Origin: Armatimonadota bacterium
GTDB lineage: Bacteria > Armatimonadota > DASRZA01
DNA length: 64,000 nucleotides
Assembly (NCBI GenBank): GCA_035686845.1
Contig: DASRZA010000252.1
Span: 2,101 to 66,100 of the forward strand
Direction: 5' to 3'
Shown here: in pieces, positions 8,315 through 48,485 of the stretch
Numbering within the stretch: the stretch's first letter is position 1
Layout of the letters: every line of letters begins with the position of its first letter
Notes under the pieces: model-generated
What the model was told of the DNA's origin: nothing
The model's input: only the letters and a program-made list of their open reading frames with translations
The model's database searches: none
Translations under genes and position numbers: made by a program

Positions 8315-10177
8315 GTGGTAGATAGGAGCAGCTTAGAATACGGTCCGGAGTCCCGGCGGCAATTGTCGGCGGAATTCCGATTACTCTACGTTTCACTTCT
8401 TTCGGCCGCCATCGGCCTGGCAGCCGGTGGTGTGGCGTTTTTGCTTTACCGGCTCATCGGCCTCTTCACCAATCTCTTCTATTTCCAGCGGTGTTCTTTC
8501 GCGCTCACCCCTACTCGGATGAATCACGTCGGGCCCTGGATCCTGCTGATTACCGTAGGAGGCGGACTGGTCGTGGGGGTCATGGCGAAGTACGGCAGTT
8601 CCAAGATCAAAGGGCATGGCATTCCCGAGGCGATGGAAGCGGTGCTTGTGAACCGGAGCCGGATTTCCCCTCGAGTCGCCATTCTGAAACCGCTGTCGGC
8701 GGCAATCGCCATTGGGACCGGAGGACCGTTCGGCGCTGAAGGGCCGATTATTCAGACGGGCGGCGCCATCGGTTCGGTATTGGGTCAGATCATTCACACC
8801 ACGGCTTCAGAGCGGAAAGTGCTTCTCGCCGCCGGCGCCGCGGCGGGGATGTCGGCGACGTTCAATACGCCTATCGCGGGCGTGATTCTTTCGATTGAGC
8901 TGCTGCTCTTTGAATTCAAAGCGCGATCGTTTATTCCGCTCGTCATCGCGAGCACGTTAGCGACGAGCGTCCATTCCGAGCTGCTCGGGCCCGGTCCCAT
9001 GTTTCATGTTGGCGCGGTCAATTTTGGGCTGCCGTGGAATCTCCCCTATTATGTTGTTTTGGGTCTCATCTGCGGAGTCGCCGCCTTTGCGTTTAGCAAC
9101 TTGCTCTACTGGGTGGAAGACCAGTTTGAGCGGCTGCCCATTGACGACGTGTGGTGGCCGGCCATCGGCGCACTCGCGCTCGGGATCATTGGTTTATTCG
9201 TACCGCGGGTGCTGGGCGTGGGATACGACACCATCTCCGATATTTTGAACAACAGGCTGACGTGGGGAATCCTGCTGCTTGTCATGATCTGCAAGGCGAT
9301 AGCCCTCGTGGTCTCTCTCGGATCGGGGACTTCAGGCGGCCTGCTGGCCCCGATGTTTATGTGCGGCGCCGCGCTCGGGGGCGTGTTCGCCATAGCAGTC
9401 AATCATCTGATCCCCGGCGCCCATCTCTCTCCTGCGGCCTTCGCGCTCACGGGAATGGCGGCGGTGTTTGGCGCCGCGTCTCGCGCAGCCTTTACATTCA
9501 TCATCTTTGCGTTTGAGTTGACGCGAAACTATAACTCCGTGCTTCCGCTCATGCTTGTCTGTGTCATCGCCGATGGTGTAGGGCTTTTCCTCATGCATAA
9601 CTCGATTATGACCGAGAAGCTCGCTCGGCGAGGCCTGCGGATCCATCAGGAGTACGAAGCAGACGTCTTTCAACAGGCGAACGTGGCCGACGTGATGGAT
9701 CCGGACGTGCCGACTATTCCGGCGAGCATGACGGTTAATGAACTGGCGGGGCTGCTTGCGAAGCGCGACCCGCTGGTCACCCGGCATCATGGACTCTTTC
9801 TGATGGATGATCAGAACCGGTTGGTGGGTGTCATCACTCGTAATGACGTGATGCGGATCGTGGTGGATGCGCCCGAGTCGAAGTTGACTGTTCTGGACGC
9901 GGGGCAAAAGCGGGTACTGGTGACCTATCCCGATGAACCTCTGTACGACGCTGTGGGCCGGATGCTCTCGAATGACGTGGGCCGACTGCCGGTGGTGGAT
10001 CGGGCGGCGCCGACTCGAGTTGTGGGTTACTTGGGACGCCCGGAGGTGATGGCGGCCCGTCTCAGGCGCATGGAGGAGGAGCATGTCCGGGAACCGGGCT
10101 GGATCACGTCGATTCCCCGGTCGCGGAAGCGATCGCGGGAAGGGAGGGCAGCGAATACGAGCAACGGACACCGGTGA
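8315..10177 (+). CDS. ClC-family chloride channel / H+-Cl- antiporter with C-terminal CBS domain pair
   Basis: ClC signatures GHGIPEAMEAV, GAEGPIIQTGGAIG, GSGTSGGLLAPMFMCGAALG and ~10 TM helices. C-terminal CBS-like region (VMDPDVPTIPASMTV... GRLPVVD). GTG start. Confidence 0.85.
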   Translation: MVDRSSLEYGPESRRQLSAEFRLLYVSLLSAAIGLAAGGVAFLLYRLIGLFTNLFYFQRCSFALTPTRMNHVGPWILLITVGGGLVVGVMAKYGSSKIKGHGIPEAMEAVLVNRSRISPRVAILKPLSAAIAIGTGGPFGAEGPIIQTGGAIGSVLGQIIHTTASERKVLLAAGAAAGMSATFNTPIAGVILSIELLLFEFKARSFIPLVIASTLATSVHSELLGPGPMFHVGAVNFGLPWNLPYYVVLGLICGVAAFAFSNLLYWVEDQFERLPIDDVWWPAIGALALGIIGLFVPRVLGVGYDTISDILNNRLTWGILLLVMICKAIALVVSLGSGTSGGLLAPMFMCGAALGGVFAIAVNHLIPGAHLSPAAFALTGMAAVFGAASRAAFTFIIFAFELTRNYNSVLPLMLVCVIADGVGLFLMHNSIMTEKLARRGLRIHQEYEADVFQQANVADVMDPDVPTIPASMTVNELAGLLAKRDPLVTRHHGLFLMDDQNRLVGVITRNDVMRIVVDAPESKLTVLDAGQKRVLVTYPDEPLYDAVGRMLSNDVGRLPVVDRAAPTRVVGYLGRPEVMAARLRRMEEEHVREPGWITSIPRSRKRSREGRAANTSNGHR

Positions 10178-10199
10178 TTTTGCCGAAACAGAGAACGAG

Positions 10200-11345
10200 T
10201 TACCGGTTTTTCGCGCTGAGCTCTCGGTAGAGCCGGTCGTATCGCTCTAAGAATTGGGAAAGGGTGTAATCTCTCGCCACGAGTCGCTGGCCGTTTTCGC
10301 CCATCCTGCGGGCATCATCGGGCGCGGCGAGGAGACGTGAGACGCTGCCGACCAGCGCCTCGGGATCGGCGGGGGGCGATAATAGCCCATTCTGGCCGTG
10401 CTGTACAATGTCCTGGCAGCCGGCCACCGCGGTCACGGCGCATGGCAGCCCCCATGACATCGCTTCCAGAAGCGCATAGGGAAAGCCCTCCCACAGGGAC
10501 GCCATCGCGAAGGCGTCAGCGGCCTGGTAGGCAGCGCCCGGGTCCGCCAGGTAGTCGATGTAATGGAACGCGGAACCGAGCGACCGGCTCGCGGCAGCAA
10601 GAGCCTGGTCCTTCAACTCACCATCCCCTACCCATAGAAAATGGGCGTCGGGGAAGCCGTGGCGAACGGCGGCGGCCATGCGAATCCAGTCCAGCGGCGC
10701 CTTCTGCGCTCGAAGGTGGGCCACGCAAACAATCAACGGTCCGTCCTTCGGCAGGCGAAGCCGACGCCGGCTCTCCTCTCGCTCACGCGGGCCGGTCGGA
10801 ATCACGACACCATTCGGAATCATGCGGAGCCGACCAGCGGTTATCAGCCGGGCACGGCGGATCTCACGGGCCTCCGTCGGCGAGACAGCGACGATGGCGG
10901 TACTCAAGAACCCGCCAAATCGTTCGATCGTCCGGTAGATCGCCTGCTCCGCTGCCGGCATTCCGGAGTGAAATGGCAGCGAATGTGGCGAATAGATGCG
11001 GATCGGGACGCCGGCGGCCACTCCCGCCACTCGTCCCAAAATCCCGGCCTTGGCGCTGTGGCAGTGGATGATCTCAGGCCGCTGTTCGCGCAGCAGCGCA
11101 ATAATCCGGAGGAGAGCCCGCGCGTCCGCGAGTGGGGCAGCCTGGCGGCGCATCGGAATCACATCGATGCGGTGTCCGGCTTCCCGGAGCCGTCCGGCCG
11201 CCGCCGGCGCCCGCTTATCCCGACCCGTTGAGACGATGGCGCTCTGATCCCACTGCGGAAGCCCCGTCAAAAGCTCGGTGAGGTGCCGCCGGGTCCCGCC
11301 GGTGAACGCCTCCAGAATGTGAACAATGCGCCCGCGCTGCATCAT
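10200..11345 (-). CDS. glycosyltransferase family 4
   Basis: GT4 C-terminal motif EGFPYALLEAMSWGLPCAVTAVAG...NGLL and N-terminal GT-B Rossmann region. Confidence 0.8.
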   Translation of the reverse strand: MMQRGRIVHILEAFTGGTRRHLTELLTGLPQWDQSAIVSTGRDKRAPAAAGRLREAGHRIDVIPMRRQAAPLADARALLRIIALLREQRPEIIHCHSAKAGILGRVAGVAAGVPIRIYSPHSLPFHSGMPAAEQAIYRTIERFGGFLSTAIVAVSPTEAREIRRARLITAGRLRMIPNGVVIPTGPREREESRRRLRLPKDGPLIVCVAHLRAQKAPLDWIRMAAAVRHGFPDAHFLWVGDGELKDQALAAASRSLGSAFHYIDYLADPGAAYQAADAFAMASLWEGFPYALLEAMSWGLPCAVTAVAGCQDIVQHGQNGLLSPPADPEALVGSVSRLLAAPDDARRMGENGQRLVARDYTLSQFLERYDRLYRELSAKNR

Positions 11346-11440
11346 AGAGCCGCCTTCGGGAGATCGTGCGAGATATCACATTCAGCCGAGCGAACGCGTC
11401 CGGGAACTGAAGGTGCGATATCGGCTGTCCCCTATGATTC

Positions 11441-13468
11441 CTACCACGGCGCCATCGCGAGCATAATGAGGCGGCGGATGAGGGGCCAGAGCCGGCGCTC
11501 GAGGACCTGCAAAACAGTTTGCAGCTCTGCGATTTTGAGCCAGTACGCCGTAAGCGCGAAGGCGAAAAGGGCCGGCGCGGCGCAAGCCAGGAAAATGATG
11601 ACGGCTTTTCGTTTGCTGCCCGACTTCTTCGGCTTTTTTGTGGTTACCGGATGCGTCCCGGTCTTGCCCCCGACCGGACTGGTGATTGATGGATTAGTGG
11701 TTGTCGGGATCGTGACGGCCGAAGTCGCTGCGGCGGCCCGCATGGGTCGAAGCGTTGTCTCGGGCCGGTGATAAACGAACTTCAACGTCGCCCAGAGGAC
11801 CACGATCATCACGAAAGTCGCGACGGCCATCCGCGCGATAAAGCTGACGAGGCCTTTTAGATCGAGCCCTTCTAACCGCGGCGCGAGAACGCCCACAAGG
11901 ATAAAGTCTTTCACGGTTTTGGAGGCGGTGAAGGCGAGCGCCACACCGGTGGCGCCCCAGAGAAAATAGCGAGTCCCGAAATAGGCGACCAGCAGGTAAA
12001 CCACGAATGTGCCGTACGCGATAATCGTCGGAGTTTTGGTGTCCGACATGGAGAAGTAGATTTGCAGGATGACCGTTTCAATCCCTAGGGGCAGCATTCC
12101 GAGTGAGGACCAGACGAGCGGACCCACCACGCGGCCGGCATCGCTCGCCGTGAACTTGCCGCCAAGATAGACCGTCTCCACCATCGGATGCGCGAGCATA
12201 ATGTAAACGACAGTAATCGGGACCATCAGGAAGGTGATCATCTGCAGCGCCGAGAGCAGCGCCTGGCCCAGGCGGCGCCGATCACCCCGCGTGGCCATTT
12301 CGGCGAGAAAGGGGAAGAGCGCAATCGCCAGTGCGTACGGGATAAGCAGGAAAGGGAGGTTGGTCAGCTTGGTGGCAAACTTGAGCGCGGCGACTTGCGA
12401 TGATGCCCCGCTAAAGTAGATATCCAGCACCGGACGAACCGATGAGAGCAGGTTGCCCAACATCAGCGGGACCATGAGAATGAGCAGTTTCTTAAACGCG
12501 GGATCCTGAACATCCAGGCTCCATCGCAGCAGCCGCAGCCGAGGGCGCAGCCCGAAGAGGTGAACCGCCAGCTTTATGCATCCGCCGAGAACCAGGCCGA
12601 TGGCGAAAGCGTCGATTCCGATCCAGCGCCAGAGGGCGAACCCCCCGATGACAATGCCGGCCTTGAGAGCGGTATCGGCGAATGCCGGAAGCGCAAACTC
12701 CTTATAGGCGTTCAGCACCACATACGTGAGCGACGCGACGCTCATCGTGATCGCCGCCGGGAGCATGATCCGGAGCAAGTGAGTGGTGAGCGCCATTTCG
12801 CCTGCGGTAAATCCGTGAGTGATCCGGCCGACTATCTGCCGCGCGAAGAGCTCGGCCAATCCCACTACAAGCAGGAGCACGAGGATCTGGATAATGCCGA
12901 CGATGCTCGCCAGCTTCCAGGCGCTCTCTTCACCTCGCTTCTCCTTGCTCTCGACAAATGGGGGGAGGAACGAATGGGTGAGAAGCTGTTCGCCAAAACC
13001 GAAGATATTCCAGACGACGGTTCCGGCGGCGAAGTAGGATCCCGATATGCTCCCGCCGCCAAAAAAACGGGCGACCAGCCAGGCTTCCAAAAAACCGAGC
13101 ACGCGACCGAGCGCAGTGAAACCCGTGATGGCAAAGGAAGCTTTGCCCACCCGCTCCCGATGTCCGCCATCCCTCCGGCCATCGCCTTTGATCGCGCCGT
13201 TGGAAGCGCCGGCGCTCTCTGCCCGAGATTGGTCAACAACGTTGTCGAAGCCGTCCTCACCAGGCGCCAGCGTTGGCTGCTGATCGCTCCCTTGCGGAAT
13301 CACGTCGGGCGGATCGGGTACGATCGGATTGATCGGAGTCGGAGTCGGTTCGTCCGCGCGGGGACTGGCGCCATCCTCTGGGCGTTCTGACAAATGACTA
13401 CCTCTGCCTTGATCGATGGCGCGGATTTGCAGGGCTTCCCACCGGCCGCGTGATTGTCCGGACTTCAA
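11441..13468 (-). CDS. murJ: MurJ/MviN-family lipid II (or polysaccharide) flippase with low-complexity N- and C-terminal extensions
   Basis: Core LGRVLGFLEAWLVARFFG followed by ~14 TM helices typical of MviN/MurJ. ~100-aa Pro/Gly-rich N-terminal extension and a C-terminal extension with an extra TM (true start may be internal). Confidence 0.7.
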   Translation of the reverse strand: MKSGQSRGRWEALQIRAIDQGRGSHLSERPEDGASPRADEPTPTPINPIVPDPPDVIPQGSDQQPTLAPGEDGFDNVVDQSRAESAGASNGAIKGDGRRDGGHRERVGKASFAITGFTALGRVLGFLEAWLVARFFGGGSISGSYFAAGTVVWNIFGFGEQLLTHSFLPPFVESKEKRGEESAWKLASIVGIIQILVLLLVVGLAELFARQIVGRITHGFTAGEMALTTHLLRIMLPAAITMSVASLTYVVLNAYKEFALPAFADTALKAGIVIGGFALWRWIGIDAFAIGLVLGGCIKLAVHLFGLRPRLRLLRWSLDVQDPAFKKLLILMVPLMLGNLLSSVRPVLDIYFSGASSQVAALKFATKLTNLPFLLIPYALAIALFPFLAEMATRGDRRRLGQALLSALQMITFLMVPITVVYIMLAHPMVETVYLGGKFTASDAGRVVGPLVWSSLGMLPLGIETVILQIYFSMSDTKTPTIIAYGTFVVYLLVAYFGTRYFLWGATGVALAFTASKTVKDFILVGVLAPRLEGLDLKGLVSFIARMAVATFVMIVVLWATLKFVYHRPETTLRPMRAAAATSAVTIPTTTNPSITSPVGGKTGTHPVTTKKPKKSGSKRKAVIIFLACAAPALFAFALTAYWLKIAELQTVLQVLERRLWPLIRRLIMLAMAPW

Positions 13469-13534
13469 ACCCGGAGGCTAAATCGTGAGTATTTCGCAGC
13501 GGCGCATTCACGTTCATTACCTTCGGCTGTTGGT

Positions 13535-14752
13535 TCATCTCCCCGCCAACTCCTCTTGCAATATTTTCATCAACGGATCGGCGCTCCGGTTAAATTGGCG
13601 CTCCACCCGGTCACGTCCCACCCTTGCCAGCGACCGGCGCTCCTCCGGGCGGTTGAGAAGCCGGCCGATTTCGTCGGCGAGCGATTCTGGGTCATCCGGT
13701 GGAACCAGTCGCCCCGTCTCGCCATGCGAAATCAATTCCGTAATGGCGCCCACGGGCGTGGTCACCACCGGAACCCCGCACGCCAGCGCTTCAACCAGCA
13801 CGTTGGGCAATCCATCCTGATCCCCGTCCGCCGCCACACGGCAGGGCAACACAAAGAGCGCCGCCCGCCGGTAAGCCGCCAGCGCCCCAACCTCGTCACA
13901 CGCGCCCCTCATGAATACCCGATCTTCGAGCGCCAGGTTCCGAATTAGGTTCTCAAGCGCGGTCCGGTCCGGCCCGTCGCCCAGTATCTCGCACTCAAAC
14001 GCGACTCCTCGATCTCGTAAACGAGCGCAGGCCCGGATGAGCGCGTCAATCCCCTTCTTCGGAACTAAACGGCCGATAAAGAGCAGAGCCGGCGGCCCGG
14101 TGTTACCGGGACTTCCGGGCGCAAACCGTTCCAGATCCAGCGTATGGTATACCAGATGGATATGCTCGTCCGAAATTGCAAAACGGCTGCTGACCAGGCG
14201 GGCGCTCTCCGCCGTACAGGTTAAGACGAACTGCGCCGCGGATACGTTTCCCGCATAGAATGGGTCCAGACGCCGCAGATCGCTGCCATGAACCGTGATA
14301 CTAAAGGTTACCCCGAGAAGGCGCGCCGCAACCCGGCCTACAAGAGCCGGAGCGCCCAAAAAGTGGGAGTGGACATGACGTACACCCGCATTGCGGAACA
14401 GCCCGGCTGCCCATGCCGCCGATGGCAGTAAACTCCGGAGCGTACGCAATTCCGGATGCCCCATTCCCTCCCTGATCGCCCTGATCGCCTCGCGCCAGAA
14501 TAAGGGCCGCAGCAGATTGGGACCCGCAGTCTGCCAGAACTCCAGGCGCCAGGGTGAAGGTCGATAGTGGGTTGACCGGACCAGATCCTGCCATTCGGGG
14601 CGGACTTCGATCGGCCGATGAAGCGCCGCGACGCTGATGCGGGAGCCTTCTGCTCGTAGCCGTTCAATCTCCCGCAGAATAAATGTCTCCGAAACAGCCG
14701 GAAACCGGTCCAGCAGGTATCCGATATGCGGAAGCGCAGCCCTCTTACTCAT
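13535..14752 (-). CDS. glycosyltransferase family 4 (WcaL-like)
   Basis: N-terminal IGYLLDRFPAVSETFILREIERL and C-terminal GT4 motif DGLPNVLVEALACGVPVVTTPVG. Confidence 0.8.
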   Translation of the reverse strand: MSKRAALPHIGYLLDRFPAVSETFILREIERLRAEGSRISVAALHRPIEVRPEWQDLVRSTHYRPSPWRLEFWQTAGPNLLRPLFWREAIRAIREGMGHPELRTLRSLLPSAAWAAGLFRNAGVRHVHSHFLGAPALVGRVAARLLGVTFSITVHGSDLRRLDPFYAGNVSAAQFVLTCTAESARLVSSRFAISDEHIHLVYHTLDLERFAPGSPGNTGPPALLFIGRLVPKKGIDALIRACARLRDRGVAFECEILGDGPDRTALENLIRNLALEDRVFMRGACDEVGALAAYRRAALFVLPCRVAADGDQDGLPNVLVEALACGVPVVTTPVGAITELISHGETGRLVPPDDPESLADEIGRLLNRPEERRSLARVGRDRVERQFNRSADPLMKILQEELAGR

Positions 14753-14779
14753 GTCGCTTATTCTATCACAGGCTCCGGC

Positions 14780-15931
14780 TCAGGCTCCCGCATCCTCGAC
14801 TGCCTGCCATACCACCGCGGTCGTGCGCTCCCAGATAAAACGACGAGCGCGCTCGAGACCAGCGGCGTTAAGCCGGTCCCTGAGCGATGGGTCGGTTAAT
14901 ACCTGCTCCAGCGCGCGGGCGAACGGCTCTGGTGAACCCTCCGCCAGGACCGCGGCGTCTTGCAGATTCTCACGCAGCGCCGCGCCGTTAACGCCGACGA
15001 CCGGAGTCCCGCACGCCATCGCCTCCAACGGCGGTATCCCAAAGCCTTCTGCGGTCGAAGGCTGAGCGAGGAGCGCGGCTTCGCGATAGAGATCCACCAG
15101 CCGCTCGGTCTCCACGTAACCGAGGAACCGCACCCTCTCGGCAATCCCGAGCCGGGCCGCGATTTCAACTAATTGCGGCCGCAGCCCGCGATCTTTGCCG
15201 GCCAGGATCAGTGTTAAGTTCGGCTGCCGGGCGAACAAATTCCCGCAGGATTCTATCAAGAGACGGAGGCCCTTTCGCTCCTCGAGATTGCCAACATAGA
15301 GGATGTAGGGAACGACGCCAGGCTCATTACTCTGCGCGTCCCGCGGTGTGAACCATGGATCGACGCCGAGCGGCGCCACAAACGCGCGGCGTCCAAATCG
15401 CCGCTCCACTTCGAGCTGCACGGCTCGAGTGGGCGTGATAAGCGCACGGGCCCGCCGGATGGTGGGCGGCAGGAGCAGCCGGTAGTGAAGATAGTTCTCC
15501 AACCGGGTCTGCCTCAGATTCAGCCCATGGAGATCATGAACGAAGGTTACGGCAGGGCAGGGGGAGAGCAGTGGCATGACGTACGCCGGACAAAACAAAA
15601 CGTCGGCGCGCCACCGCCGCAAGATCCAGGGCAGTTCCACCTGCTGCCAAAAGATGCGGCGCATCCGGCGCGCGCCGGAGAACGGAAGAAAACAGGCGCG
15701 GGACGCGGGGCGCGGGGCGTGCGGCGCCGGGCGCGGGGCGCGGGGCGCGGGGTTGCTGTCGTCCGTCCTCCGTCCTCCGTCCTCCTCGAACCCGGGCCAG
15801 TCACCGGGGACGAAGATCCGTATTTGATGGCCGCGCGGGTCTGCGAGGAGCCGGCGGATCACGCGGTCGGCGGTCTTCTCCACGCCCGAGTAATGTCCCC
15901 AGAGGACGCTCCCGTCAATGGCGATCTTCAT
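14780..15931 (-). CDS. glycosyltransferase family 4 carrying an in-frame 34-codon low-complexity insertion encoded by heptanucleotide repeats
   Basis: GT4 motif EGFGIPPLEAMACGTPVVGVNGAAL. The N-terminal domain is interrupted by FEEDGGRRTDDSNPAPRAPRPAPHAPRPASRAC, encoded by 15692-15793. Confidence 0.75.
   Translation of the reverse strand: MKIAIDGSVLWGHYSGVEKTADRVIRRLLADPRGHQIRIFVPGDWPGFEEDGGRRTDDSNPAPRAPRPAPHAPRPASRACFLPFSGARRMRRIFWQQVELPWILRRWRADVLFCPAYVMPLLSPCPAVTFVHDLHGLNLRQTRLENYLHYRLLLPPTIRRARALITPTRAVQLEVERRFGRRAFVAPLGVDPWFTPRDAQSNEPGVVPYILYVGNLEERKGLRLLIESCGNLFARQPNLTLILAGKDRGLRPQLVEIAARLGIAERVRFLGYVETERLVDLYREAALLAQPSTAEGFGIPPLEAMACGTPVVGVNGAALRENLQDAAVLAEGSPEPFARALEQVLTDPSLRDRLNAAGLERARRFIWERTTAVVWQAVEDAGA
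15692..15795. repeat. heptanucleotide-periodic repeat tract ((GCGGGGC)~7 then (CTCCGTC)3) inside the GT4 coding sequence
   Basis: ~13 consecutive 7-nt units in register: gcggggc x2, gtgcggc, gccgggc, gcggggc x2, gcggggt ... gtccgtc, ctccgtc x2. Total length keeps the reading frame. Confidence 0.7.
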
Positions 15932-15957
15932 AGGAGTTCAGAGCGCCTCATGGTACC

Positions 15958-17094
15958 TCATCCGATCACGACTCGATAAAGCTGTTCGACGCGGCGCGCG
16001 TGTAAGGTGGAAGAATAATGGGATTCGGCGCGCTGGCGGCCAGCCGCCCCCATCGCCCGGCGTCGGCTGGGGTCTCCAGCAAGCGCTAAGATCGCGGCGC
16101 TGAGGGCCGCCGTATTTCCCGGGGGGATAAGAAGTCCCGTCTCGCCATCGACGACGGTTTCGGCCGCGCCCCCGGCGCCGGCCGCGATGACGGGCACGCC
16201 ACATGCCATCGCTTCAACCGGAACGCGTCCGAATGCCTCATCAGCGGCGGGGTGAATGAGTAGATCCAGCGCGGATAACAGCGTAGGCACGTCTCGAATC
16301 CAGGGCATAACTCGACCGATGCCGGCTAGTTCCGCTGCGTACCGTTCCCGCAGCGCCGGCCCTTCTCCAGGGGGCGGAGCGCCGCAGAGAATAAAGAAGA
16401 GGCGCGGGTCTCGCTTCGCGGCTTCTTTCGCGGCCGCGAGGAAATGCTCGACGCCTTTCCACGGAACCCACTGGCCAATCATACCGGCGATGATGCCGTC
16501 AGTGGGAAGCGTGAGCGACCGCCGCGCCGCGATGGAATCGGCCGGTCGGAATCGGGTCAAATCGATGCCATTGGGGATCATGCTCACCGGGCGATCGGGG
16601 TGACCGGGCAGGAATCGCCAGGAGCGGGCTGAATCCTGCAGCCGCCGCACCACCGCATCCGAAGGAGCGATGCAGCGATGTGAGAACGCCGCCGCAACCC
16701 CGTCGAATCGCTCTGATCCCGCGAGATCTCGCGCGTGCCAGATAAGCGGGACGTGCAGACAGGTTGCGGCGATCCGGGCGGGGATCCATGCCGCACGACC
16801 GTTTGCATGAATGATCGCCGGGCGTGCATTCAGGGCTGCGAGGGCGAGGCGCGCTCCGGCGATAACCGTCTGGCCCACCAGAAAAGCGGCGCCGGCCGGC
16901 CCGCGGGAGCGGGCGCTCGAAACCGGCAGACAAAGAGGAATCCAGCAGGCCGAAGGCGCCATGCGGGCAATTAGCGGCGGCCCGGCCAGCCACGGTTCCC
17001 AGGCCGCCTTATCTAACTCTTCAATAAGACCGGCAAGACTTTGCTGCGCCCCGCCCGGAAACGGCGCTGCGTCTACGTACAGGATTCGGAACAT
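15958..17094 (-). CDS. glycosyltransferase family 4
   Basis: GT4 motif DEAFGRVPVEAMACGVPVIAAGAGGAAETVVDGETGLLI. Confidence 0.8.
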   Translation of the reverse strand: MFRILYVDAAPFPGGAQQSLAGLIEELDKAAWEPWLAGPPLIARMAPSACWIPLCLPVSSARSRGPAGAAFLVGQTVIAGARLALAALNARPAIIHANGRAAWIPARIAATCLHVPLIWHARDLAGSERFDGVAAAFSHRCIAPSDAVVRRLQDSARSWRFLPGHPDRPVSMIPNGIDLTRFRPADSIAARRSLTLPTDGIIAGMIGQWVPWKGVEHFLAAAKEAAKRDPRLFFILCGAPPPGEGPALRERYAAELAGIGRVMPWIRDVPTLLSALDLLIHPAADEAFGRVPVEAMACGVPVIAAGAGGAAETVVDGETGLLIPPGNTAALSAAILALAGDPSRRRAMGAAGRQRAESHYSSTLHARRVEQLYRVVIG

Positions 17095-18056
17095 AATTCC
17101 TGAATCCAGACAAGAGTTTCACGGACGACCTCTCGCTTCCAGGCAAGAGAATAGAAGGCGTGATTGGAACCCTCCACAACGTGAATCCGTGCGTGTTCGA
17201 CGAAAGCGGCGCCGACACGGGCGTAATAATCGATCGACTCCTGCCTTTCGGGATCGGCGCCGCCGTAAACGAAGAGCGCCGGGGTCGTGAGCGTCGAAAG
17301 CGCCAGTTCGTACGTCCGTTCATCGGGCTTTGGTCCGGCCCAGTCGGTCTCAGCCGTGGAACCGGCGCTCGCGCCTCGCAGTTTCCGCGCGTCGCCTCCC
17401 TTCAACACTCTTAAAATCGTGCGCGGTTGGAGCTGCCCATGCGCCAGTTTGGCCCAGGTCCGGGAATCGAAGAGCCGGGCGCCATAGACCTTAAGCAGGC
17501 TGATCAGCCTGCGCTTCGATCGTGTGGACCGAACGGTTGGGGCAGTCGCGCCGCTGTCCGACGCAGGAACCGGGTCGGGGTGAAGCGGAGGCGGGGACCA
17601 GAGCGCCATACCGGAGAGCGCCGAGATCCCCGGGGCCGCGCCCAGGGCGACTTGCGCTCCAGCGCAGATTCCGATCAGCAGGATTGACTCAACCCCCGTT
17701 TTCTCGCGGAGGTATTGCGCGGCGGCGCGGGTATCCTCGACCATTGTTCCGATGTGCGCTGATCGCTGCTCGCCACCGCTATCCCCGCGGCCGCGAAAAT
17801 CAAAACGGAGAGCGGGGAAACCGGCCGCCGCAAGCACCCGTGCCATCGACACCAGAATGCCGTGCGGGCCAACGCGTGTTCCCGACCAGCCGCCGAGCAG
17901 CACGACGCCAACCGTCTTCCGCGCGTCCGGTTTTCGAGGGTTCGTCGGAAAGGGCCGGTGTATTATCCCATAAACCGGCAGCGTGGATTTCTCGCCCACG
18001 CCAAAGCAGACCAGGTCCTCAGCGATCGCGGTGTGCTCGGGGAGAGCCGTGGTCAT
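17073..18056 (-). CDS. alpha/beta-fold hydrolase with a Cys in the nucleophile-elbow position (G-I-C-A-G)
   Basis: Alpha/beta hydrolase core VVLLGGWSG...LIGICAGAQVALGAA. Start ATG (18054-18056) overlaps the stop of the upstream HEAT gene (ATGA). Confidence 0.6.
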   Translation of the reverse strand: MTTALPEHTAIAEDLVCFGVGEKSTLPVYGIIHRPFPTNPRKPDARKTVGVVLLGGWSGTRVGPHGILVSMARVLAAAGFPALRFDFRGRGDSGGEQRSAHIGTMVEDTRAAAQYLREKTGVESILLIGICAGAQVALGAAPGISALSGMALWSPPPLHPDPVPASDSGATAPTVRSTRSKRRLISLLKVYGARLFDSRTWAKLAHGQLQPRTILRVLKGGDARKLRGASAGSTAETDWAGPKPDERTYELALSTLTTPALFVYGGADPERQESIDYYARVGAAFVEHARIHVVEGSNHAFYSLAWKREVVRETLVWIQELCSESCT

Positions 18057-19186
18057 TGCCGCAATTCCTTTTCTGGAAGCTTTGATTCCAGGCCCAGCGC
18101 GTTCGCGGCCGCAAGGCGAACCCGCGCGTCTCGATCTTTCTCCGCCACCGTCTTGAGCCGGTCTTTCACTTCCTGATCGGGAAAAAGAGCCAGCGCCTCC
18201 ACGCAGGCTGCCCGGATTGTCGCCACCTGATGAGAAGTTTTCGCGAGAAGAGCCGCTCGCGCCTCGGGAAGACGGAGTGTCGCGATGGCTGCGGCGAGCG
18301 CCGCCGCCAACTCTCGGGGCGCTTTCTCGAGTCGATCAATGAGCGGGGGCAGCGCTGCAGGATTGCGGGTGCGTCCCATCGCGAGCGCCGCGCCGCCGGC
18401 AAGAAACCGGTTCTCGGAGTCGAGGTAGGGGATCAGGAACTCCATCGCGCGAGGATCGGCCAGGCTTACAAGCGAATTCATGGACTCTACAATAATATCC
18501 GCGTCCGCGTTCGGATGAAGACGCAGCATTAGCGCTAGCGGCACATTCCCCGCCGGGTCGCCCAAAACGCCGATCGCCTTTGCCGCCGCTCGGCCGGCGG
18601 GAAGCGCATCGGCGCCGAAGGGCGCGTCCAGGCCGGCTTCAAAAAGGAGCAGCGAAATATCCAGCAGCGCGCCGGGCGGCCGGATCTGCGCCAGGGCCAG
18701 CGCACAGCTCCCACGAAGCGGAATCGCCGTGTCCGCCGGCCCCATTCCCACCATTTCTATCTGAACTGTTCTTAAGCCCAAACGCAGCGCCTCGTCGGCC
18801 TTAAGATAAGCCATATTACCGAGCGCAATGGCGAGCTCAATTCGCACCGCGCAGCCGGCGTCACGATGCTCGCCGTCTTTGGATGCCCAGAAAAAGTGAT
18901 CAATCATCGCGTCGGCGATCTCGGGCGACGCCTGCTTCACGAGCGCACGGGCAGCCGAGGCGCCAACGTAGCTCAACCGGTCCCTGAGCGCCTCGACAAG
19001 CCAGGGCGTGGCCGTCGGCGCCCCGATCCGCTCAAGTTCAGCGATGGCGCGCAGGCGATCTTCAGCGTAACGCGATTTCAAGGCATGTGTCGCGCACTCA
19101 AGCGACGGTCCCGCGTTCCTGTTTCGACACTGCGCCGACCTTCTCACCGCTCGTTCCCGTCCACCGGGGAATCTTGCGCAAGCCAT
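18053..19186 (-). CDS. HEAT-repeat (PBS lyase-like) protein
   Basis: Repeated ~30-aa units with LxxALxD, AAxALGxLG and RVRLAAANALG patterns. Start uncertain (overlaps the upstream hydrolase gene by ~40 nt). Confidence 0.6.
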   Translation of the reverse strand: MACARFPGGRERAVRRSAQCRNRNAGPSLECATHALKSRYAEDRLRAIAELERIGAPTATPWLVEALRDRLSYVGASAARALVKQASPEIADAMIDHFFWASKDGEHRDAGCAVRIELAIALGNMAYLKADEALRLGLRTVQIEMVGMGPADTAIPLRGSCALALAQIRPPGALLDISLLLFEAGLDAPFGADALPAGRAAAKAIGVLGDPAGNVPLALMLRLHPNADADIIVESMNSLVSLADPRAMEFLIPYLDSENRFLAGGAALAMGRTRNPAALPPLIDRLEKAPRELAAALAAAIATLRLPEARAALLAKTSHQVATIRAACVEALALFPDQEVKDRLKTVAEKDRDARVRLAAANALGLESKLPEKELRQ

Positions 19187-19998
19187 CCTGCCGTCAGCTC
19201 AAGGATCTCCGGGCAATCCACCAGCCCGAGCAGGTTCCAGAACGGCTGCGCGGTGACATGATCCAGGCGAGTTGGAACGCCGCTTGATTCAAGGGCGCCG
19301 GCCAGCGTAACGCAGGGTGCGGAGGCCCGTGTCCCGGCGCTCACCGAAATAATGAGCGCGCTGCCGGGCCATCCGGCAGGCGCCGCAGCATCCAACGCTT
19401 CGATCTGATTCCAGGCAGCCTGAGCGACCGGATAGCCGTCGAAATCAAAGATCTCATCGGTGGTCGGAAGAGCCGGCTCGGCTGCGGCGCCTGCGTTGAT
19501 CATCTGACGGATCGACTTTCTGCGAATATTCATGCGCACATAGCTTCGGCCATTCGTAACGGGCTCCCAAAGCGCCAGCCGGTCAACGCCGGCCGTTTGG
19601 GGAGCGGCGCGAAGCGCAAGTGCGCCGCCGAGGCGCAGACCGAAGAGTGAAAGTGGCGCGTCGGGAAATCGCACGCGAGCGAACAGGAGCGTCCGGGCGA
19701 TATCGTCCAGAGCGGTCTCGACCGTGAACATCGAGAAATCGCCTTCGCTGTCGCCTGTCCCCATGTAACCAAACCGTATCGAGGCGATGTCGCGCTTCGC
19801 TAACTTCCGCGCCAGCTCAACATAGAGGCGCCTTGAGCACTTTTCTTCTTCCGCAAACGGTGGGCAATAAACCACCACCCGCCGCGGCGGGACTACCCTC
19901 CCGCTTTTATCGACCGCTTCGTGGATCATCGTCCACTGCCGTGGCGGCCCGAGCCATATCATCCGCTCGGGTGTCATCTCGGGGATTACTTCCAGCAC
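19144..19998 (-). CDS. alpha/beta-fold hydrolase-like protein lacking a Ser nucleophile (G-L-R-L-G-G elbow)
   Basis: Fold-typical order VVVYCPPFAEE...FGYMGTGDSEGDF...LFGLRLGGALAL. The nucleophile position is occupied by Arg. Confidence 0.5.
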   Translation of the reverse strand: MLEVIPEMTPERMIWLGPPRQWTMIHEAVDKSGRVVPPRRVVVYCPPFAEEEKCSRRLYVELARKLAKRDIASIRFGYMGTGDSEGDFSMFTVETALDDIARTLLFARVRFPDAPLSLFGLRLGGALALRAAPQTAGVDRLALWEPVTNGRSYVRMNIRRKSIRQMINAGAAAEPALPTTDEIFDFDGYPVAQAAWNQIEALDAAAPAGWPGSALIISVSAGTRASAPCVTLAGALESSGVPTRLDHVTAQPFWNLLGLVDCPEILELTAGWLAQDSPVDGNER

Positions 19999-20086
19999 GG
20001 TTTACTCCTCAATAATACCCGTTTCGCCACGAGGATCACCCGCGGCAGTCTCGGCGTCCGGTCGGCGCGGTGGAACGTGCGCCTCG

Positions 20087-20566
20087 TTACGCCGGATCGT
20101 TCTTCTCAACCCGGACAGGGTTCTCCAGCAGCCGGCGGGTCTGCTCCTGACGATAGGCGAAGGTCTCCCGGAGCTCTCGAGCGACCAACCGTCCCATCAG
20201 AAAACTGCCCAGCGGTCCCATCGGAAGCTCGTAATCGATTTCGTCTATCAACCGGGCGCCGCCGGGTGTCTTCTCGAACCGGTGCGTGTGAATCCAGTGC
20301 GCAAACGGTCCGCTCACCTGCCGGTCCTGGAGCAGATTCGGCGCCTCGATCCGGGTTACCTCCGCCTCGATTCGAACGGGGATTCCCGCCTGCGTCGATC
20401 GGACGATGACCCGCGACCCCGGTTTCAGTGTTTCATCACTTGCGGAAACCAGCTCCGTATGACTGCCCGGCGGCGCCACTCGAATGATGTTGCGGGGATT
20501 CGTATGGAACTCGAAGACTTGATCGATCGGCGCGGAAATCTCCACCGACCGGGTGAAACGCGGCAT
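20087..20566 (-). CDS. SRPBCC-superfamily protein (polyketide cyclase/dehydrase-like, START/Bet v1 fold)
   Basis: N-terminus FTRSVEISAPIDQVFEFHTNPRN and overall length and pattern match PF10604/PF03364-type proteins. Confidence 0.55.
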   Translation of the reverse strand: MPRFTRSVEISAPIDQVFEFHTNPRNIIRVAPPGSHTELVSASDETLKPGSRVIVRSTQAGIPVRIEAEVTRIEAPNLLQDRQVSGPFAHWIHTHRFEKTPGGARLIDEIDYELPMGPLGSFLMGRLVARELRETFAYRQEQTRRLLENPVRVEKNDPA

Positions 20567-20572
20567 CTCCTT

Positions 20573-21688
20573 TCAATTCTCCACGAAGCGGGCTGAGTCG
20601 GGAACGTACAATTCCATATACCGCTGCACCGCAAAGCGATCGGTCATACCTGCCACGTAATCACAGGCCTGCCGGCAGGCGGTTTTAGACGCGCTCGCCC
20701 TATCCTCCGCGCGGGCGTCCTCAATTTCCTCAAGAGCATTGGTGAAGTAATGATCGAACAGACCGTGAACCACCGTGCGGACGCGGTGATCTTCACCCGA
20801 TGAGTTCGGCAAGTATACCCGTTCAAACAGGAACTCCTTGAGGTCGTTCAGCGCCTGAAGAATCTGGGGGCTGATCCTGATCTCGGGACGGTCCGTGCTC
20901 TGCTCGACAATATCGGCCACCACTTTGCCGATCCGGTCGCTGTGAGTGTATCCGAGCACGGCGAGAAGCGATTCCGGCACCGCGTCCTCGGGGATGAAGC
21001 GCGCACGGATCGCGTCTTCCATATCATGGTTTACGTACGCAATCCGGTCTGCCAGCTTCACGGCCTGGCTCTCCAGAGTCGCCGGTCCCGACGTAGTTTC
21101 CGTGAGGTCGTTCCGCCCTTTGGTATGGCCCAAAATCCCCTGCCGCACTTCCCACGTGAGGTTAAGACCACGACCGTTTCGCTCCAATACGTCTACCACG
21201 CGGAGGCTCTGCTCCCAATGATAAAACCGCTCGGAATGGGTCTTTACCACCTCATCCAGCGCCGCTTCGCCCGAATGCCCGAATGGCGTATGCCCCAGGT
21301 CGTGCGCCAGCGCAATGGCTTCGGTGAGATCTTCGTTGAGCGACAGAGCGCGGGCAAGCGTTTTGGCGATCTGGGTAACTTCCAGGGTGTGTGTCAGGCG
21401 GGTTCGAATATGATCCTGGCTGGGCAGAATAAAGACCTGTGTCTTGTGCGCCAGCCGCCGAAAGGCGCGGCAGTGAATTACCCGGTCCCGATCGCGCTGA
21501 AAGTCGGTGCGAATCGGGCAGGGATCTTCGGGCGTCGCGCGTCCCCGGCTCTCCTCGCTCCGGCTCGCCCATGGCGCCAGGCTTTCCCGCTCTCGCGAAT
21601 GTATCCTCTCTCGAACCGTCATCATTCCCCCAAAACCGGTACGCGGTACGAGGCGCGGGGCGCAATGACTTCCCATCATCCTCCGCAC
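20573..21688 (-). CDS. dGTP triphosphohydrolase-like HD-domain phosphohydrolase (Dgt family)
   Basis: FQRDRDRVIHCRAFRRLAHKTQVF, HD motif HTRLTHTLEVTQIA, LAHDLGHTPFGHSGE. GTG start with SD GGAGGA. Confidence 0.8.
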   Translation of the reverse strand: MRRMMGSHCAPRLVPRTGFGGMMTVRERIHSRERESLAPWASRSEESRGRATPEDPCPIRTDFQRDRDRVIHCRAFRRLAHKTQVFILPSQDHIRTRLTHTLEVTQIAKTLARALSLNEDLTEAIALAHDLGHTPFGHSGEAALDEVVKTHSERFYHWEQSLRVVDVLERNGRGLNLTWEVRQGILGHTKGRNDLTETTSGPATLESQAVKLADRIAYVNHDMEDAIRARFIPEDAVPESLLAVLGYTHSDRIGKVVADIVEQSTDRPEIRISPQILQALNDLKEFLFERVYLPNSSGEDHRVRTVVHGLFDHYFTNALEEIEDARAEDRASASKTACRQACDYVAGMTDRFAVQRYMELYVPDSARFVEN

Positions 21689-21727
21689 CCGTTCCTCCGC
21701 GCTCCTTACCCCGCGCCTCGCATGCTC

Positions 21728-22111
21728 TTACCCGTCGGGTGGCCCGGTGGCCTTAACGATTGGGGCGATCTTGCCGAGCAGCTCCACGAGATCGGCGAGG
21801 GTCGTGCAAGTGATCCAGCGGTTATGTTCCAGATGCCGTTTCCCCTCGTGCGGACCGTTGTGGCTCCAGAAGCGGACTAAGTAGCTGTCGATGTCGGGAT
21901 TATCGAGCGTGGGATAATAGACATCGGCCCCGGCGCCCGGGCCCGGCACGTGGAAGGCGGGCATCGTCAAAAAGCCCAGCGCCTCTACAATCTCTGGGAT
22001 TTCGGCGCCATGGGGCACCTCCACGTGGAAGTCTCGCCATTCGGACTTCGCGTAGGTGTGCATCTTGATTTTGACCGTCGTTTTCCGACTTTTGGACGTT
22101 CTACCACTCAA
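21728..22111 (-). CDS. hypothetical protein
   Basis: 127-aa ORF between the dGTPase and GDSL genes on the same strand. No recognised motif. Probably starts at the internal Met (MHTYAKSEW). Confidence 0.35.
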   Translation of the reverse strand: MSGRTSKSRKTTVKIKMHTYAKSEWRDFHVEVPHGAEIPEIVEALGFLTMPAFHVPGPGAGADVYYPTLDNPDIDSYLVRFWSHNGPHEGKRHLEHNRWITCTTLADLVELLGKIAPIVKATGPPDG

Positions 22112-22748
22112 AGTCGATAGCCTTTAGAAACGCCCGGGCTAAGATCATGTGACCCGTCTGGCTCGGATGTACCCGGTCCCACGCCAGGCTGGCGGGATAA
22201 TAGGTTGCGAGCGCCTGGTCGAAGGCGGCCTGGGTATCCACCAGGATGGAGTCGTATCTCCGCGCCAGGCTCTTCACGACGCCGCCGTACCGGTCCATCC
22301 GGACACGCATCGCGTCTCGTTCATTGGATTCAATATAGAACGGGGTCAACAGCACGAGCCCGTCAAGCGCCGGCGCCGTGCGGCCGATGAGATCGTCGAG
22401 TGTTGACTCGTATTCGTCAATGAGAACGTGCGTTTCAGTCTGGCGCGGGGAGTCGAACTGTCGCCAGACGTCGTTAATCCCGATCATGACAGAGAGCCAG
22501 TCAGGCTCGCGGTCGAGAACATCACGCTGCCATCGCGCCTTCAGGTCACGGACGGTGTTGCCACTCGTTCCCTGGTTTATGATACGGATACCGAGATCGG
22601 GATAGACAGCGCCGAGGAGGGCGTCGATCTGGGCCACGTAACCGCGCCCGAGGGCATCGAACAAACCTTCCCCCGATGGCTGAGCGCGGCCTGCGTCCGT
22701 GATCGAGTCACCGATCATTACGAGCTTCGAATGCTTGTTGATTTTCAT
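22101..22748 (-). CDS. SGNH/GDSL-family hydrolase
   Basis: Block I MIGDSITDAG with catalytic Ser, block III GINDV, block V DRVHPSQTGH (Asp/His). Confidence 0.75.
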   Translation of the reverse strand: MKINKHSKLVMIGDSITDAGRAQPSGEGLFDALGRGYVAQIDALLGAVYPDLGIRIINQGTSGNTVRDLKARWQRDVLDREPDWLSVMIGINDVWRQFDSPRQTETHVLIDEYESTLDDLIGRTAPALDGLVLLTPFYIESNERDAMRVRMDRYGGVVKSLARRYDSILVDTQAAFDQALATYYPASLAWDRVHPSQTGHMILARAFLKAIDFEW

Positions 22749-22749: not shown

Positions 22750-23900
22750 TTAACTCGCTGGCTGTGATTAGCCGCCGTTCAAGTTCCCATTTTGACTGGG
22801 ATTCGGGAGAGTTTGAGAACGTATTGCCCTTCGCAGGGAGATCATCTCCGGTTGGCGCAGTGGTGTCCATCGAGTCGATACGTTGACTTCCAATTGTGTA
22901 GGACTCGTATACGAGCACGTATTCTATAGTAGCATTCCCCAAGACGCGAAGCCGCAAAAGAACGCCGCGGCGGGGTAAACGCCAGAGCGCACCCGACAGA
23001 CTGCTGGCTTCACAGGCGGGAGCGCTGCTGCAATTGGTCTCTCAGTTGTCGCAGCTCGTCCAGGCTCATTGATTGCAGCGATGCTTCCGGTGTCGCCTCG
23101 TCCCCAAGCGAAGACTGAAGGAGTAGAACCTGGCCAATCAACATACCCTGCTGGAGCCCCTGCTGCAGCCCCTGTTGGAGCGCGTGTCTCATTCGGGCGT
23201 TCTCGTCTCGCCGCATCTTTTCGCGGCCTTCATAGATCTCCCGTTCCAGGTCTCTCTTTGAAAGCACCATCAGTTCCTCCACTGCCTGCCGGATCGCTTC
23301 GTCGTCTATCGTCGCCGGCAGCGCCTTCTCATCTAATGTTTCCCCATGCTTCAGAAAGTACAGCCACTGGTCTATCTCACTCTCCAGTTCTTCCGCTCCC
23401 TTGTTGAACTTCGCCAACTCAAAGAGGTGGATATCCAGATCCTCCGTGAACACTGCTCCGGTGGCGCGGTCGATCAGCCCGAACCGCGAGTGATACACCT
23501 TTCCCGGAAAGATTGTTCCATCGACGAAGCAAACTGAGATCGTGGGCTGAAGCAGACTGTAGTCCCGGCCGGCTGGGAGCTGTTCGGTATACAGCTTGGA
23601 CCAATAGAACATTATCCGCTGGGGCAGCTCCGCAAACCCGATCATCTGCATCTCGACGTTGAAGTGTCGGCCAATCTGGTCCCGAGCCTTGATATCCAGG
23701 ATGGAGAGCTTCTCATCAAAAGCAGCCTTCTCGGTGAAAGGATTGAGGATTTCAATATGCACAATCCTCTGGCCTGGAGGCAGTTGGAGGACGGCGTTGA
23801 GCAGGTCGATCAGGAGGGCAGCAGTGGCGAGTCTGCCAAACAGCCACTTGAATGCAAAATCCACCTTGGGATCAATGCCAGAACTCATACTCGTCCCCGG
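22750..23900. mobile_element. lower-GC (~50-52%) islet carrying an Rpn-family nuclease/putative transposase gene
   Basis: Visible drop in GC relative to the flanks. Bounded upstream (24068-24205) by a composite repeat array. Confidence 0.35.
23010..23888 (-). CDS. Rpn-family recombination-promoting nuclease / PD-(D/E)XK putative transposase (TIGR01784-like)
   Basis: N-terminus DPKVDFAFKWLFG, ...LLIDLLNAVL..., IVHIEILNPF...LDIKARDQIGRHFNVEMQ match the YhgA/Rpn (transposase_31) family. Glutamine-rich C-terminal tail. Confidence 0.65.
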   Translation of the reverse strand: MSSGIDPKVDFAFKWLFGRLATAALLIDLLNAVLQLPPGQRIVHIEILNPFTEKAAFDEKLSILDIKARDQIGRHFNVEMQMIGFAELPQRIMFYWSKLYTEQLPAGRDYSLLQPTISVCFVDGTIFPGKVYHSRFGLIDRATGAVFTEDLDIHLFELAKFNKGAEELESEIDQWLYFLKHGETLDEKALPATIDDEAIRQAVEELMVLSKRDLEREIYEGREKMRRDENARMRHALQQGLQQGLQQGMLIGQVLLLQSSLGDEATPEASLQSMSLDELRQLRDQLQQRSRL

Positions 23901-42549: not shown

Positions 42550-42551
42550 GA

Positions 42552-43589: not shown

Positions 43590-43697
43590 CCTTCACTCCA
43601 ATGCCGGATATTCCGCTTCATCCGGTCGCTCCTTCGGACGCTCTCCTGAACACTCGACCTACAACCTCAAGCATTTCCATTTGCAAAACGCTCAATC

Positions 43698-44784: not shown

Positions 44785-44802
44785 TTACCAATTAGTTAGC
44801 TC

Positions 44803-48481: not shown

Positions 48482-48485
48482 AGAG

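Follow-up and report, generated by a model that had tools for sequence, protein, structure and literature searches.

The stretch of DNA analysed here, from an uncultured Armatimonadota bacterium (contig DASRZA010000252.1; the whole stretch of 64 kb is called the window), contains between positions 10200 and 19998 an operon of eight genes that code for two proteins of the α/β-hydrolase fold, a HEAT-repeat protein, four glycosyltransferases of family GT4 and a flippase of the MurJ family. Judged by gene order and protein similarity, this operon is a reduced, HEAT-bearing variant of a conserved gene cassette and is descended from it. The two hydrolase-fold proteins resemble the hydrolases 2 and 1 associated with the exosortase A system and are named here hydr2-like and hydr1-like. 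Tentatively, the operon is read as a pathway for a short lipid-linked glycan in which this pair would carry out an acyl transfer. The genes, in the order in which they are transcribed, are:

19144-19998, minus strand: hydr2-like α/β-fold protein, 284 aa; Hydrolase_4, best NCBIfam match TIGR03101.
18053-19186, minus strand: HEAT-repeat protein, 377 aa from ATG 19186 or 364 aa from GTG 19147; HEAT_2, 75.9 bits.
17073-18056, minus strand: hydr1-like α/β hydrolase, 327 aa; Hydrolase_4, best NCBIfam match TIGR03100.
15958-17094, minus strand: GT4d, 378 aa, first GT4 of the cassette by position; Glyco_transf_4 and Glycos_transf_1.
14780-15931, minus strand: GT4c, 383 aa, second GT4 of the cassette by position; Glyco_transf_4 and Glycos_transf_1.
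13535-14752, minus strand: GT4b, 405 aa, third GT4 of the cassette by position; Glyco_transf_4 and Glycos_transf_1.
11441-13468, minus strand: MurJ-family (MOP superfamily) flippase, 675, 650 or 569 aa depending on the start; Pfam MurJ, 213 bits.
10200-11345, minus strand: GT4a, 381 aa, last gene of the cassette by position; Glyco_transf_4 and Glycos_transf_1.

These eight co-directional open reading frames (ORFs), identified by ORF analysis of the window, are all intact and fill the interval. The spacings at their junctions, from hydr2-like to GT4a, are -43 (-4 with GTG 19147 as the HEAT start), -4, -22, +26, +27, +66 and +95 nt, and since the genes are tightly spaced or overlapping they form one operon. 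The ATGA at 18053-18056 is the junction of the HEAT and hydr1-like genes, and the overlap of hydr1-like with GT4d at 17073-17094 is of exactly 22 nt; both features and the eight minus-strand genes had been described in an earlier note made from the sequence alone, and the ORF coordinates confirm them. The gene identities proposed there (four GT4s, a MurJ-type flippase, a HEAT protein and two α/β hydrolases) agree with the Pfam and NCBIfam annotation, and the proposal of an operon for glycan or glycoconjugate assembly is supported by these domains together with the orthology described below. A scan of positions 9800-22200 gave 4 promoter-like sites, against 2.5 ± 1.7 in shuffled sequence, and 18 terminator-like sites, against 10.8 ± 4.1; both counts are near the shuffled ones, and none of the sites marks the ends of the operon. 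Four independent metagenome assemblies contain the same locus at 99.7-100% nucleotide identity, which excludes a sequencing error.

The cassette was surveyed by scanning one genome per species with a profile of the hydr1-like protein, and 80 loci were identified. They span Armatimonadota (Armatimonadia, 'Zipacnadia' and Abditibacteriaceae), WS1, Planctomycetota, Verrucomicrobia, Lentisphaerae and Kiritimatiellae. The order of the cassette is (KS-KS'-E1α-E1β)-GT2-ACP-hydr2-hydr1-GT4-GT4-GT4-MurJ-GT4 (loci L013-L093), where KS is a FabF-like ketosynthase, KS' a truncated ketosynthase, E1α and E1β are subunits like those of pyruvate dehydrogenase (PDH) E1, and ACP is an acyl carrier protein. The arrangements were counted from offline profile searches of six-frame ORFs, in loci many of which end at contig ends: hydr2 was found immediately upstream of hydr1 in 56 of the 80 loci and fused to it in 6/80, ACP immediately upstream of hydr2 in 50/80, and the triplet GT2-ACP-hydr2 in 43/80. 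On the other side of the pair, hydr1 is followed by GT4d in 51/80 loci, the order GT4d, GT4c, GT4b was present in 38/80, and the full order GT4d, GT4c, GT4b, MurJ, GT4a in 24/80. The synteny is thus conserved, and the genes are not scattered independently among relatives, an outcome that the earlier note had named as fatal to its idea. Each position of the cassette block finds its best window match in the gene that holds the corresponding place, which makes operon and block orthologous gene for gene.

The window operon and the cassette share the order hydr2, hydr1, GT4d, GT4c, GT4b, MurJ, GT4a and the same invariant residues. They differ in that the window lacks GT2, ACP, the E1 subunits and the ketosynthases, and adds the HEAT gene, an insert in the flippase and a divergent flippase cavity. 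The PDH-E1-like α and β subunits and the complete and truncated ketosynthases lie further upstream in many loci. In L093 (1553-9184), the ketosynthase has the cispentacin AmcF model as its best or near best match (244 bits, cut-off 325), and the cispentacin AmcB model is the top match of the ACP (66 bits, cut-off 80). These upstream genes suggest an acyl-building unit similar to a type-II fatty acid synthase or polyketide synthase (FAS/PKS), primed by the PDH-E1-like pair. The same locus, the one fully annotated example of the cassette, contains no Wzy, Wzz, initiating transferase or exporter. Two other arrangements were found. In Abditibacteriaceae an AMP-binding ligase, and in some loci a DUF4351 protein, lies upstream of a fused hydr2::hydr1 (L009/L022, L034, L050, L051 and L075); the ligase is adjacent to the fusion in L009/L022, L034, L050 and L051 and about 2.3 kb away in L075, with no GT4 or MurJ nearby, and in L051 the ligase and the fusion seem fragmented by frameshifts or assembly errors. 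One Lentisphaerae locus reads DegT-E1α-E1β-GT2-ACP-hydr2-hydr1-GT2. No description of the cassette was found in the literature searched.

The core of the operon and of the cassette is the hydrolase pair. The hydr2-like protein matches TIGR03101 (hydrolase 2, exosortase A system-associated) with 115.4 bits against a cut-off of 202.75, over profile positions 24-265 of 266, and the hydr1-like protein matches TIGR03100 (hydrolase 1 of the same system) with 89.6 bits against 168.45, over positions 20-273 of 274; as both scores are under the cut-offs, the proteins are distant relatives of these families and not members. Profile searches of the PDB placed both in one esterase clade (9PJB, 9PID, 7Q4H and cinnamoyl esterases). 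In hydr2-like the nucleophile elbow is G-L-R-L-G-G with Arg122 at the nucleophile position, which the profile alignment to solved Ser hydrolases places on the nucleophile Ser of 9PID, and the motifs PFAEE and GTGDSEG are also carried. An AlphaFold2 (AF2) model of this protein shows a complete α/β-hydrolase fold, with a predicted local distance difference test score (pLDDT) of 90.5 and a predicted template modelling score (pTM) of 0.90, and Foldseek ranks the lipase 7Q4H and feruloyl esterases highest. Having no catalytic triad, with Arg in place of the nucleophile and neither Asp nor His, the protein resembles a pseudoenzyme.

In hydr1-like the elbow is G-I-C-A-G with Cys131 at the nucleophile position, Asp268 and His299 complete a Cys-Asp-His triad, and the cap region is family-specific (Y191, K/R194). 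By profile alignment the three triad residues fall on the Ser, Asp and His of 9PJB and 9PID; with nucleophile, acid and His all at canonical positions, the protein is, as far as its alignment tells, not a degenerate enzyme. Both elbows had been singled out in the earlier note as atypical. They are present as described and are not peculiar to this locus: the elbow Arg was found in 69/69 hydr2 sequences from independent genome loci and R122 is invariant among 29 homologues, including proteobacterial proteins named 'exosortase A-associated hydrolase 2', while G-x-C-x-G, Asp and His were found in 85/85 locus-derived hydr1-like sequences and G129, C131, G133, D268 and H299 are invariant among 37 homologues. 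Across the sequences compared, Arg and Cys at the elbow are therefore the family norm. A sequencing error that would hide canonical Ser nucleophiles was considered as the source of these elbows and rejected, the residues being invariant in the family and the locus near-identical in the four assemblies.

Natural hydr2::hydr1 fusions of about 550-570 aa occur in at least 8 protein clusters. Fusions were also identified within cassettes, in L017 (GT2-ACP upstream and GT4d-GT4c downstream) and in L092 (GT4d next), and fusions of this kind are Rosetta-stone evidence for a joint action of hydr2 and hydr1. A second conserved context was observed for hydr1-like alone. In Planctomycetota/Brocadiia a solo hydr1-like protein with the same Cys-Asp-His triad is consistently placed after a radical S-adenosylmethionine (SAM) protein of about 600 aa (L069, L073, L078, L085 and L094; also L026, L028, L045, L072 and L079), and this unit is often directly behind PBP2 and RodA, which hints at a role in the cell envelope.

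The likeness to the hydrolase pairs of exosortase and exopolysaccharide (EPS) systems, raised in the earlier note, is borne out by the profile comparisons, at scores below threshold. The hydrolase 2/1 pair of the XrtA/PEP-CTERM system gives the best hidden Markov model matches for both window proteins. In that pair, as in the window, hydr2 precedes hydr1, hydr2 has an Arg elbow and the PFAEE and GTGDSEG motifs, hydr1 has a Cys elbow, and the genes belong to a glycan locus that also has GT4s and a flippase. The differences are that the window proteins score far under the cut-offs, that the HEAT gene splits the window pair, and that the 64 kb contain no ACP, ligase, pyridoxal phosphate (PLP)-dependent decarboxylase, FemAB-like gene, exosortase or PEP-CTERM protein. 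In an XrtA-type locus of Denitromonas, ACP-hydr2-hydr1 is accompanied by genes for an AMP ligase, a PLP decarboxylase and a FemAB-like protein. In the one canonical hydr1 compared (Denitromonas ohlonensis, L011:10817-11689) the elbow Cys is kept (G-G-C-D-A-A), the His position holds Gln and there is no Asp, so that the canonical TIGR03100 family may use a chemistry different from that of the window clade. A further copy of ACP-hydr2-hydr1 stands at 1-1342 of the same locus, encoded on the opposite strand. The literature searched yielded no functional study of either TIGR03100 or TIGR03101, and neither is mentioned in the founding PEP-CTERM paper.

All four GT4s (a family of retaining GT-B enzymes) contain an N-terminal domain of the Glyco_transf_4 type and a Glycos_transf_1 domain (107-129 bits), above the Pfam gathering scores. 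The best NCBIfam match of GT4a is TIGR03088, the glycosyltransferase 'stp2' of the PEP-CTERM/XrtA system (108.7 bits, cut-off 409); GT4d also matches this model under its cut-off, and GT4b is EpsE/WcaL-like (NF041876, 203 bits, cut-off 400). Some GT4s work directly on membrane lipids, PimA and the glucosyl-diacylglycerol synthases among them.

The flippase meets the Pfam MurJ model PF03023 (213 bits, threshold 27.4), stays below the cut-off of the equivalog TIGR01695 (209.7 bits against 235.55), and aligns over about 455 residues to the lipid II flippases of the PDB (6CC4, 7WAW and 5T77; E 4e-35). Long N- and C-terminal extensions were attributed to it in the earlier note. The one at the N-terminus is partly an issue of ORF calling and hangs on a TTG start: the only start candidates are TTG 13468 (675 aa), TTG 13393 (650 aa; the start chosen by gene callers on identical contigs) and GTG 13150, there is no ATG, and similarity to orthologues and to MurJ proteins of known structure sets in near residue 105 of the 675-aa ORF. 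GTG 13150 is in frame, has GGGAG upstream and gives an orthologue-sized protein of 569 aa. At the C-terminus about 115 aa lie past the aligned core, against 55-70 aa in orthologues; the extension there consists of a T/P/K-rich low-complexity insert of about 55 aa followed by a hydrophobic helix, probably the last MurJ transmembrane (TM) helix.

Five charged cavity residues, R18, R24, D39, R52 and R270, are essential in Escherichia coli MurJ. Their equivalents are R, E, G, I/G and K in the window flippase and K/R, K/R, D, a hydrophobic residue and R/K in the cassette orthologues. The window protein shares with the lipid II flippase the MOP/MVF fold and R18, and has a conservative Lys at the R270 position; it differs in that R24, D39 and R52 are not conserved and in that the gene lies in a glycosyltransferase operon, not in a cell-wall cluster. 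The lost cavity residues could mean an altered or weakened function, and they suggest a changed substrate or a relaxed constraint.

The HEAT gene sits between hydr2 and hydr1 and is translationally coupled on both sides. Its start is most likely GTG 19147 rather than ATG 19186; from this GTG the protein has 364 aa and the gene is coupled by a GTGA to the hydr2-like stop, and P0212, from another assembly, is the identical 364-aa form. The order hydr2-HEAT-hydr1-GT4d-GT4c was also found in L006/L007, at about 50-55% protein identity to the window. The operon HEAT protein was found in 0/80 cassette loci, and neither hydrolase, GT4 nor MurJ genes adjoin the HEAT relatives (29-52% identity) encoded by 45 metagenome loci and two contigs. 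On these two grounds the gene comes from a small family that is otherwise independent, its insertion here is lineage-specific, and a HEAT protein as regular partner of the pair was rejected, given the 47 family loci that lack such neighbours. The protein may serve as an adaptor, or it may be no more than a passenger. Of the scaffold or acyl-modifying role that the earlier note proposed for the pair and the HEAT protein together, the acyl part is favoured by the ACP adjacency in relatives, whereas the HEAT part comes down to this insertion. Two further observations concern its surroundings and its fold. CoaBC (phosphopantothenoylcysteine synthetase/decarboxylase) is encoded directly upstream of hydr2 in the HEAT-bearing relative closest to the window, in L006 (8679-9911) and L007 (6208-7440), beside a module that elsewhere adjoins the phosphopantetheinylated ACP, which may be a coincidence. 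A second HEAT protein of the window (54286-56067, plus strand; HEAT_2, 128 bits) is fused to an RMKL-like (UPF0020) methyltransferase domain and is not among the matches of the homologue search with the operon HEAT protein.

The rest of the window was searched for the partners of such a system. No ACP was identified among the six-frame ORFs of the window, L005, L006 or L012 with three cassette ACPs as queries, and no homologues of GT2, E1α/β or KS were found in the 64 kb, the only match being an unrelated DegT (41380-42579). Pfam scans of essentially all large ORFs gave no Wzy, Wzz, Wza, Bac_transf or WecA; together with a crude hydropathy scan, in which the ORFs with at least 6 TM segments were two, a ClC channel and the MurJ-like flippase, they bear out the earlier remark that no polymerase, chain-length regulator, initiating transferase or export gene is visible. 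An exosortase was found neither by Pfam nor in TM-rich ORFs of the window, the TM-rich ORFs gave no candidate for an O-antigen ligase either, a regex search gave no PEP-CTERM tails, and tRNA and Rfam scans were empty. A sugar-nucleotide cluster lies 21 kb away at 41377-49844 (minus strand) and comprises DegT, an NTP-transferase, an NAD epimerase/dehydratase, a WecC-like protein (UDP-ManNAc-dehydrogenase-like), WecB (UDP-GlcNAc 2-epimerase) and a fifth GT4 (438 aa); it may supply precursors to the GT4 operon. The ORF at 48486-49844 (452 aa) has only a faint AMP-binding match (E 4e-4), and kinship with the 452-aa ORF near the fused hydrolase of L009 was rejected, as the two show no similarity.

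Directly upstream of the operon, 88 nt from hydr2 and on the same strand, lies one further gene:

20087-20566, minus strand: SRPBCC (Polyketide_cyc2) protein.

It may be co-transcribed with the operon and is a candidate member of the system. No such gene was found at the corresponding place in L005, in L006 or in the loci of the cassette; in L022 and L051 weak SRPBCC homologues occur at a distance of about 5 kb from the fused hydrolase. An HD-domain dGTPase-like gene (20573-21688) sits 6 nt upstream of the SRPBCC gene.

The reading that we favour, still tentatively and with somewhat less than even confidence, is that the operon assembles a short glycan at the cytoplasmic face, with a membrane lipid as acceptor, and that this glycan is modified and then flipped outward without polymerisation, the hydrolase pair being responsible for an acyl transfer. 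The four GT4s would assemble the glycan, probably an oligosaccharide of tetrasaccharide scale or a glycolipid head group, and the MurJ-family flippase would carry the product across the membrane. The hydr2-like and hydr1-like proteins would form an obligate pair of paralogous α/β-fold proteins. Within it, hydr1-like would be the catalyst: a thioester donor would load Cys131 with an acyl or aminoacyl group, and from this Cys131-thioester the group would pass to the glycan or lipid, or be released; hydr2-like would be a non-catalytic partner that probably binds the carrier or the substrate. The dedicated ACP, the GT2 and the acyl-building genes would have gone from the locus, and the HEAT gene, inserted there, would possibly code for an adaptor.

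We infer the acyl step from three points: the near-universal adjacency of ACP in the relatives, the change of Ser to Cys with Asp and His kept, and the lack in the cassette of any other enzyme that would link the ACP product to the glycan. A mechanistic resemblance can be drawn to polyhydroxyalkanoate (PHA) synthase PhaC, which has a G-x-C-x-G variant of the lipase box and a Cys-Asp-His triad and catalyses a thioester-to-oxoester transfer. G-x-C-x-G, Asp and His are alike in PhaC and hydr1-like, and thioester substrates are suggested for the latter by the ACP of its relatives; the resemblance is confined to mechanism, and hydr1-like, a member of the Hydrolase_4 esterase clade, is a much smaller protein.

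Several observations count against this pathway of glycan assembly and acyl transfer. The window has no ACP, acyl ligase, KS, E1 or GT2, and the genes found upstream instead are the SRPBCC and HD-domain ones. A Cys triad would suit a thioesterase or hydrolase equally well. In 18/80 loci, mostly of Planctomycetota, hydr1-like occurs without hydr2, so the partner is not always needed, and the AF2 model of the fusion P0098, from an 8-sequence alignment, has a pLDDT of 70.9 and a pTM of 0.56 and shows no confident packing between the domains. The flippase has E, G and N at the equivalents of R24, D39 and E273, against K/R, D and D in 28 orthologues. Finally, the relative L005 has the bare pair, and L006 has two GT4s (GT4d and GT4c) and no flippase; with both loci reduced, the pair is less firmly tied to the glycan genes in the sub-clade of the window.

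A conventional Wzx/Wzy locus for EPS or an O-antigen-like polymer, with the missing partners elsewhere in the genome and the pair as accessory glycan-modifying or quality-control proteins, is an unlikely alternative. Several GT4s with a MOP-family flippase are typical of EPS loci, the sub-threshold matches of GT4a and GT4d to TIGR03088 and of GT4b to EpsE/WcaL point in the same direction, and the sugar-nucleotide cluster 21 kb off is on the same strand. A TIGR03100-type predicted hydrolase, Bcam1334, also stands beside a GT4 and a flippase in the biofilm EPS cluster Bcam1330-1341 of Burkholderia cenocepacia; the cluster is experimentally implicated in EPS and the role of Bcam1334 is only guessed (PMC3584217). 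That cluster, however, contains Wzz, Wza-type export and Acyl_transf_3, and no hydr2 partner was reported. The Wzx/Wzy pathway proposed in the earlier note is not indicated here: its partners, and any other polytopic ORF that could be Wzy-like, are missing from the 64 kb as they are from the full cassette of L093, ACP, KS and E1 are consistently carried by the cassette, and the flippase is of the MurJ and not of the Wzx (Polysacc_synt) type.

The pair could also be hydrolytic, either as a thioesterase that frees or edits an acyl chain bound to ACP or coenzyme A, or as an esterase that de-acylates the glycan; we consider this doubtful. Carboxyl-, feruloyl- and monoacylglycerol esterases are the nearest relatives of known structure, the type-II FAS/PKS-like KS, KS' and ACP of the full cassette need a step of chain release, and dienelactone hydrolase, an α/β hydrolase with a Cys triad, is a true hydrolase and offers a precedent. 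The universal change of Ser to Cys, the invariant dedicated partner and the cap motifs would nevertheless be unusual for simple thioesterases, only the pair could join an ACP-bound product to the glycan in the cassette, and the window locus has no ACP to edit.

It is quite improbable that the window locus is the decaying remnant of a cassette whose ancestral product was lost, with genes kept by chance or individually re-purposed. GT2, ACP, E1 and KS are missing, a foreign HEAT gene is inserted, flippase cavity residues are lost, and the loss is progressive in the sub-clade (GT4d and GT4c only in L006, the pair only in L005). The eight ORFs are nevertheless intact, both hydrolases retain every family-invariant residue, the coupling is held on both sides of the HEAT gene, and hydr2-HEAT-hydr1-GT4d-GT4c is shared by lineages that are only about 50-55% identical. 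Very improbable is a housekeeping lipid II flippase with a functionally meaningless GT4/hydrolase neighbourhood, to which the Pfam score and the best PDB matches would lead, given the score under the TIGR01695 cut-off, the place that the gene keeps between GT4b and GT4a in at least 24 genomes, and the E, G and I/G at the equivalents of R24, D39 and R52.

The pathway favoured above, of a lipid-linked glycan acylated before export, can be carried one step further, to a proposal that we regard as speculative and, as it stands, rather unlikely. Under it, hydr2/hydr1 would be an unrecognised class of two-subunit glycan or glycolipid acyltransferase, with a Cys catalyst and an Arg pseudoenzyme, that places a thioester-bound acyl or aminoacyl group onto a lipid-linked oligosaccharide before MurJ-type export, and the HEAT protein would replace the lost ACP as adaptor or in presenting the donor.

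Other genes of the window were recorded at a distance from the operon. The gene at 4169-5533 (plus strand) codes for a type II/IV secretion ATPase (T2SSE, 342 bits) with a zf-HC2 anti-sigma zinc finger at the N-terminus, an unusual combination of domains, and a sigma factor of the extracytoplasmic function type (sigma-70 family, 3461-4060) is directly upstream of it. A transposase-like gene of the PD-(D/E)XK nuclease family (PDDEXK_2, 200 bits; 23010-23888, minus strand) lies about 3 kb upstream of the operon, and a GDSL lipase gene (22101-22748) is listed as preceding it.

The hydrolase 1/2 pair has been for many years a named yet functionally blank part of the polysaccharide loci of PEP-CTERM/exosortase systems. 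Its fixed non-Ser chemistry, its fusions and its place in the core of the cassette lead to a testable hypothesis, that of a heterodimeric Cys-dependent acyl transfer in the synthesis of envelope glycoconjugates, and the window variant, with its HEAT protein gained and its ACP missing, offers a natural test of which module parts can be dispensed with. If the two-subunit acyltransferase were real, a function would be assigned to the exosortase-A-associated hydrolase 1/2 pair in proteobacterial EPS loci. The chemistry of the Armatimonadota envelope is barely known, and any defined glycolipid or oligosaccharide product of this operon would be new.

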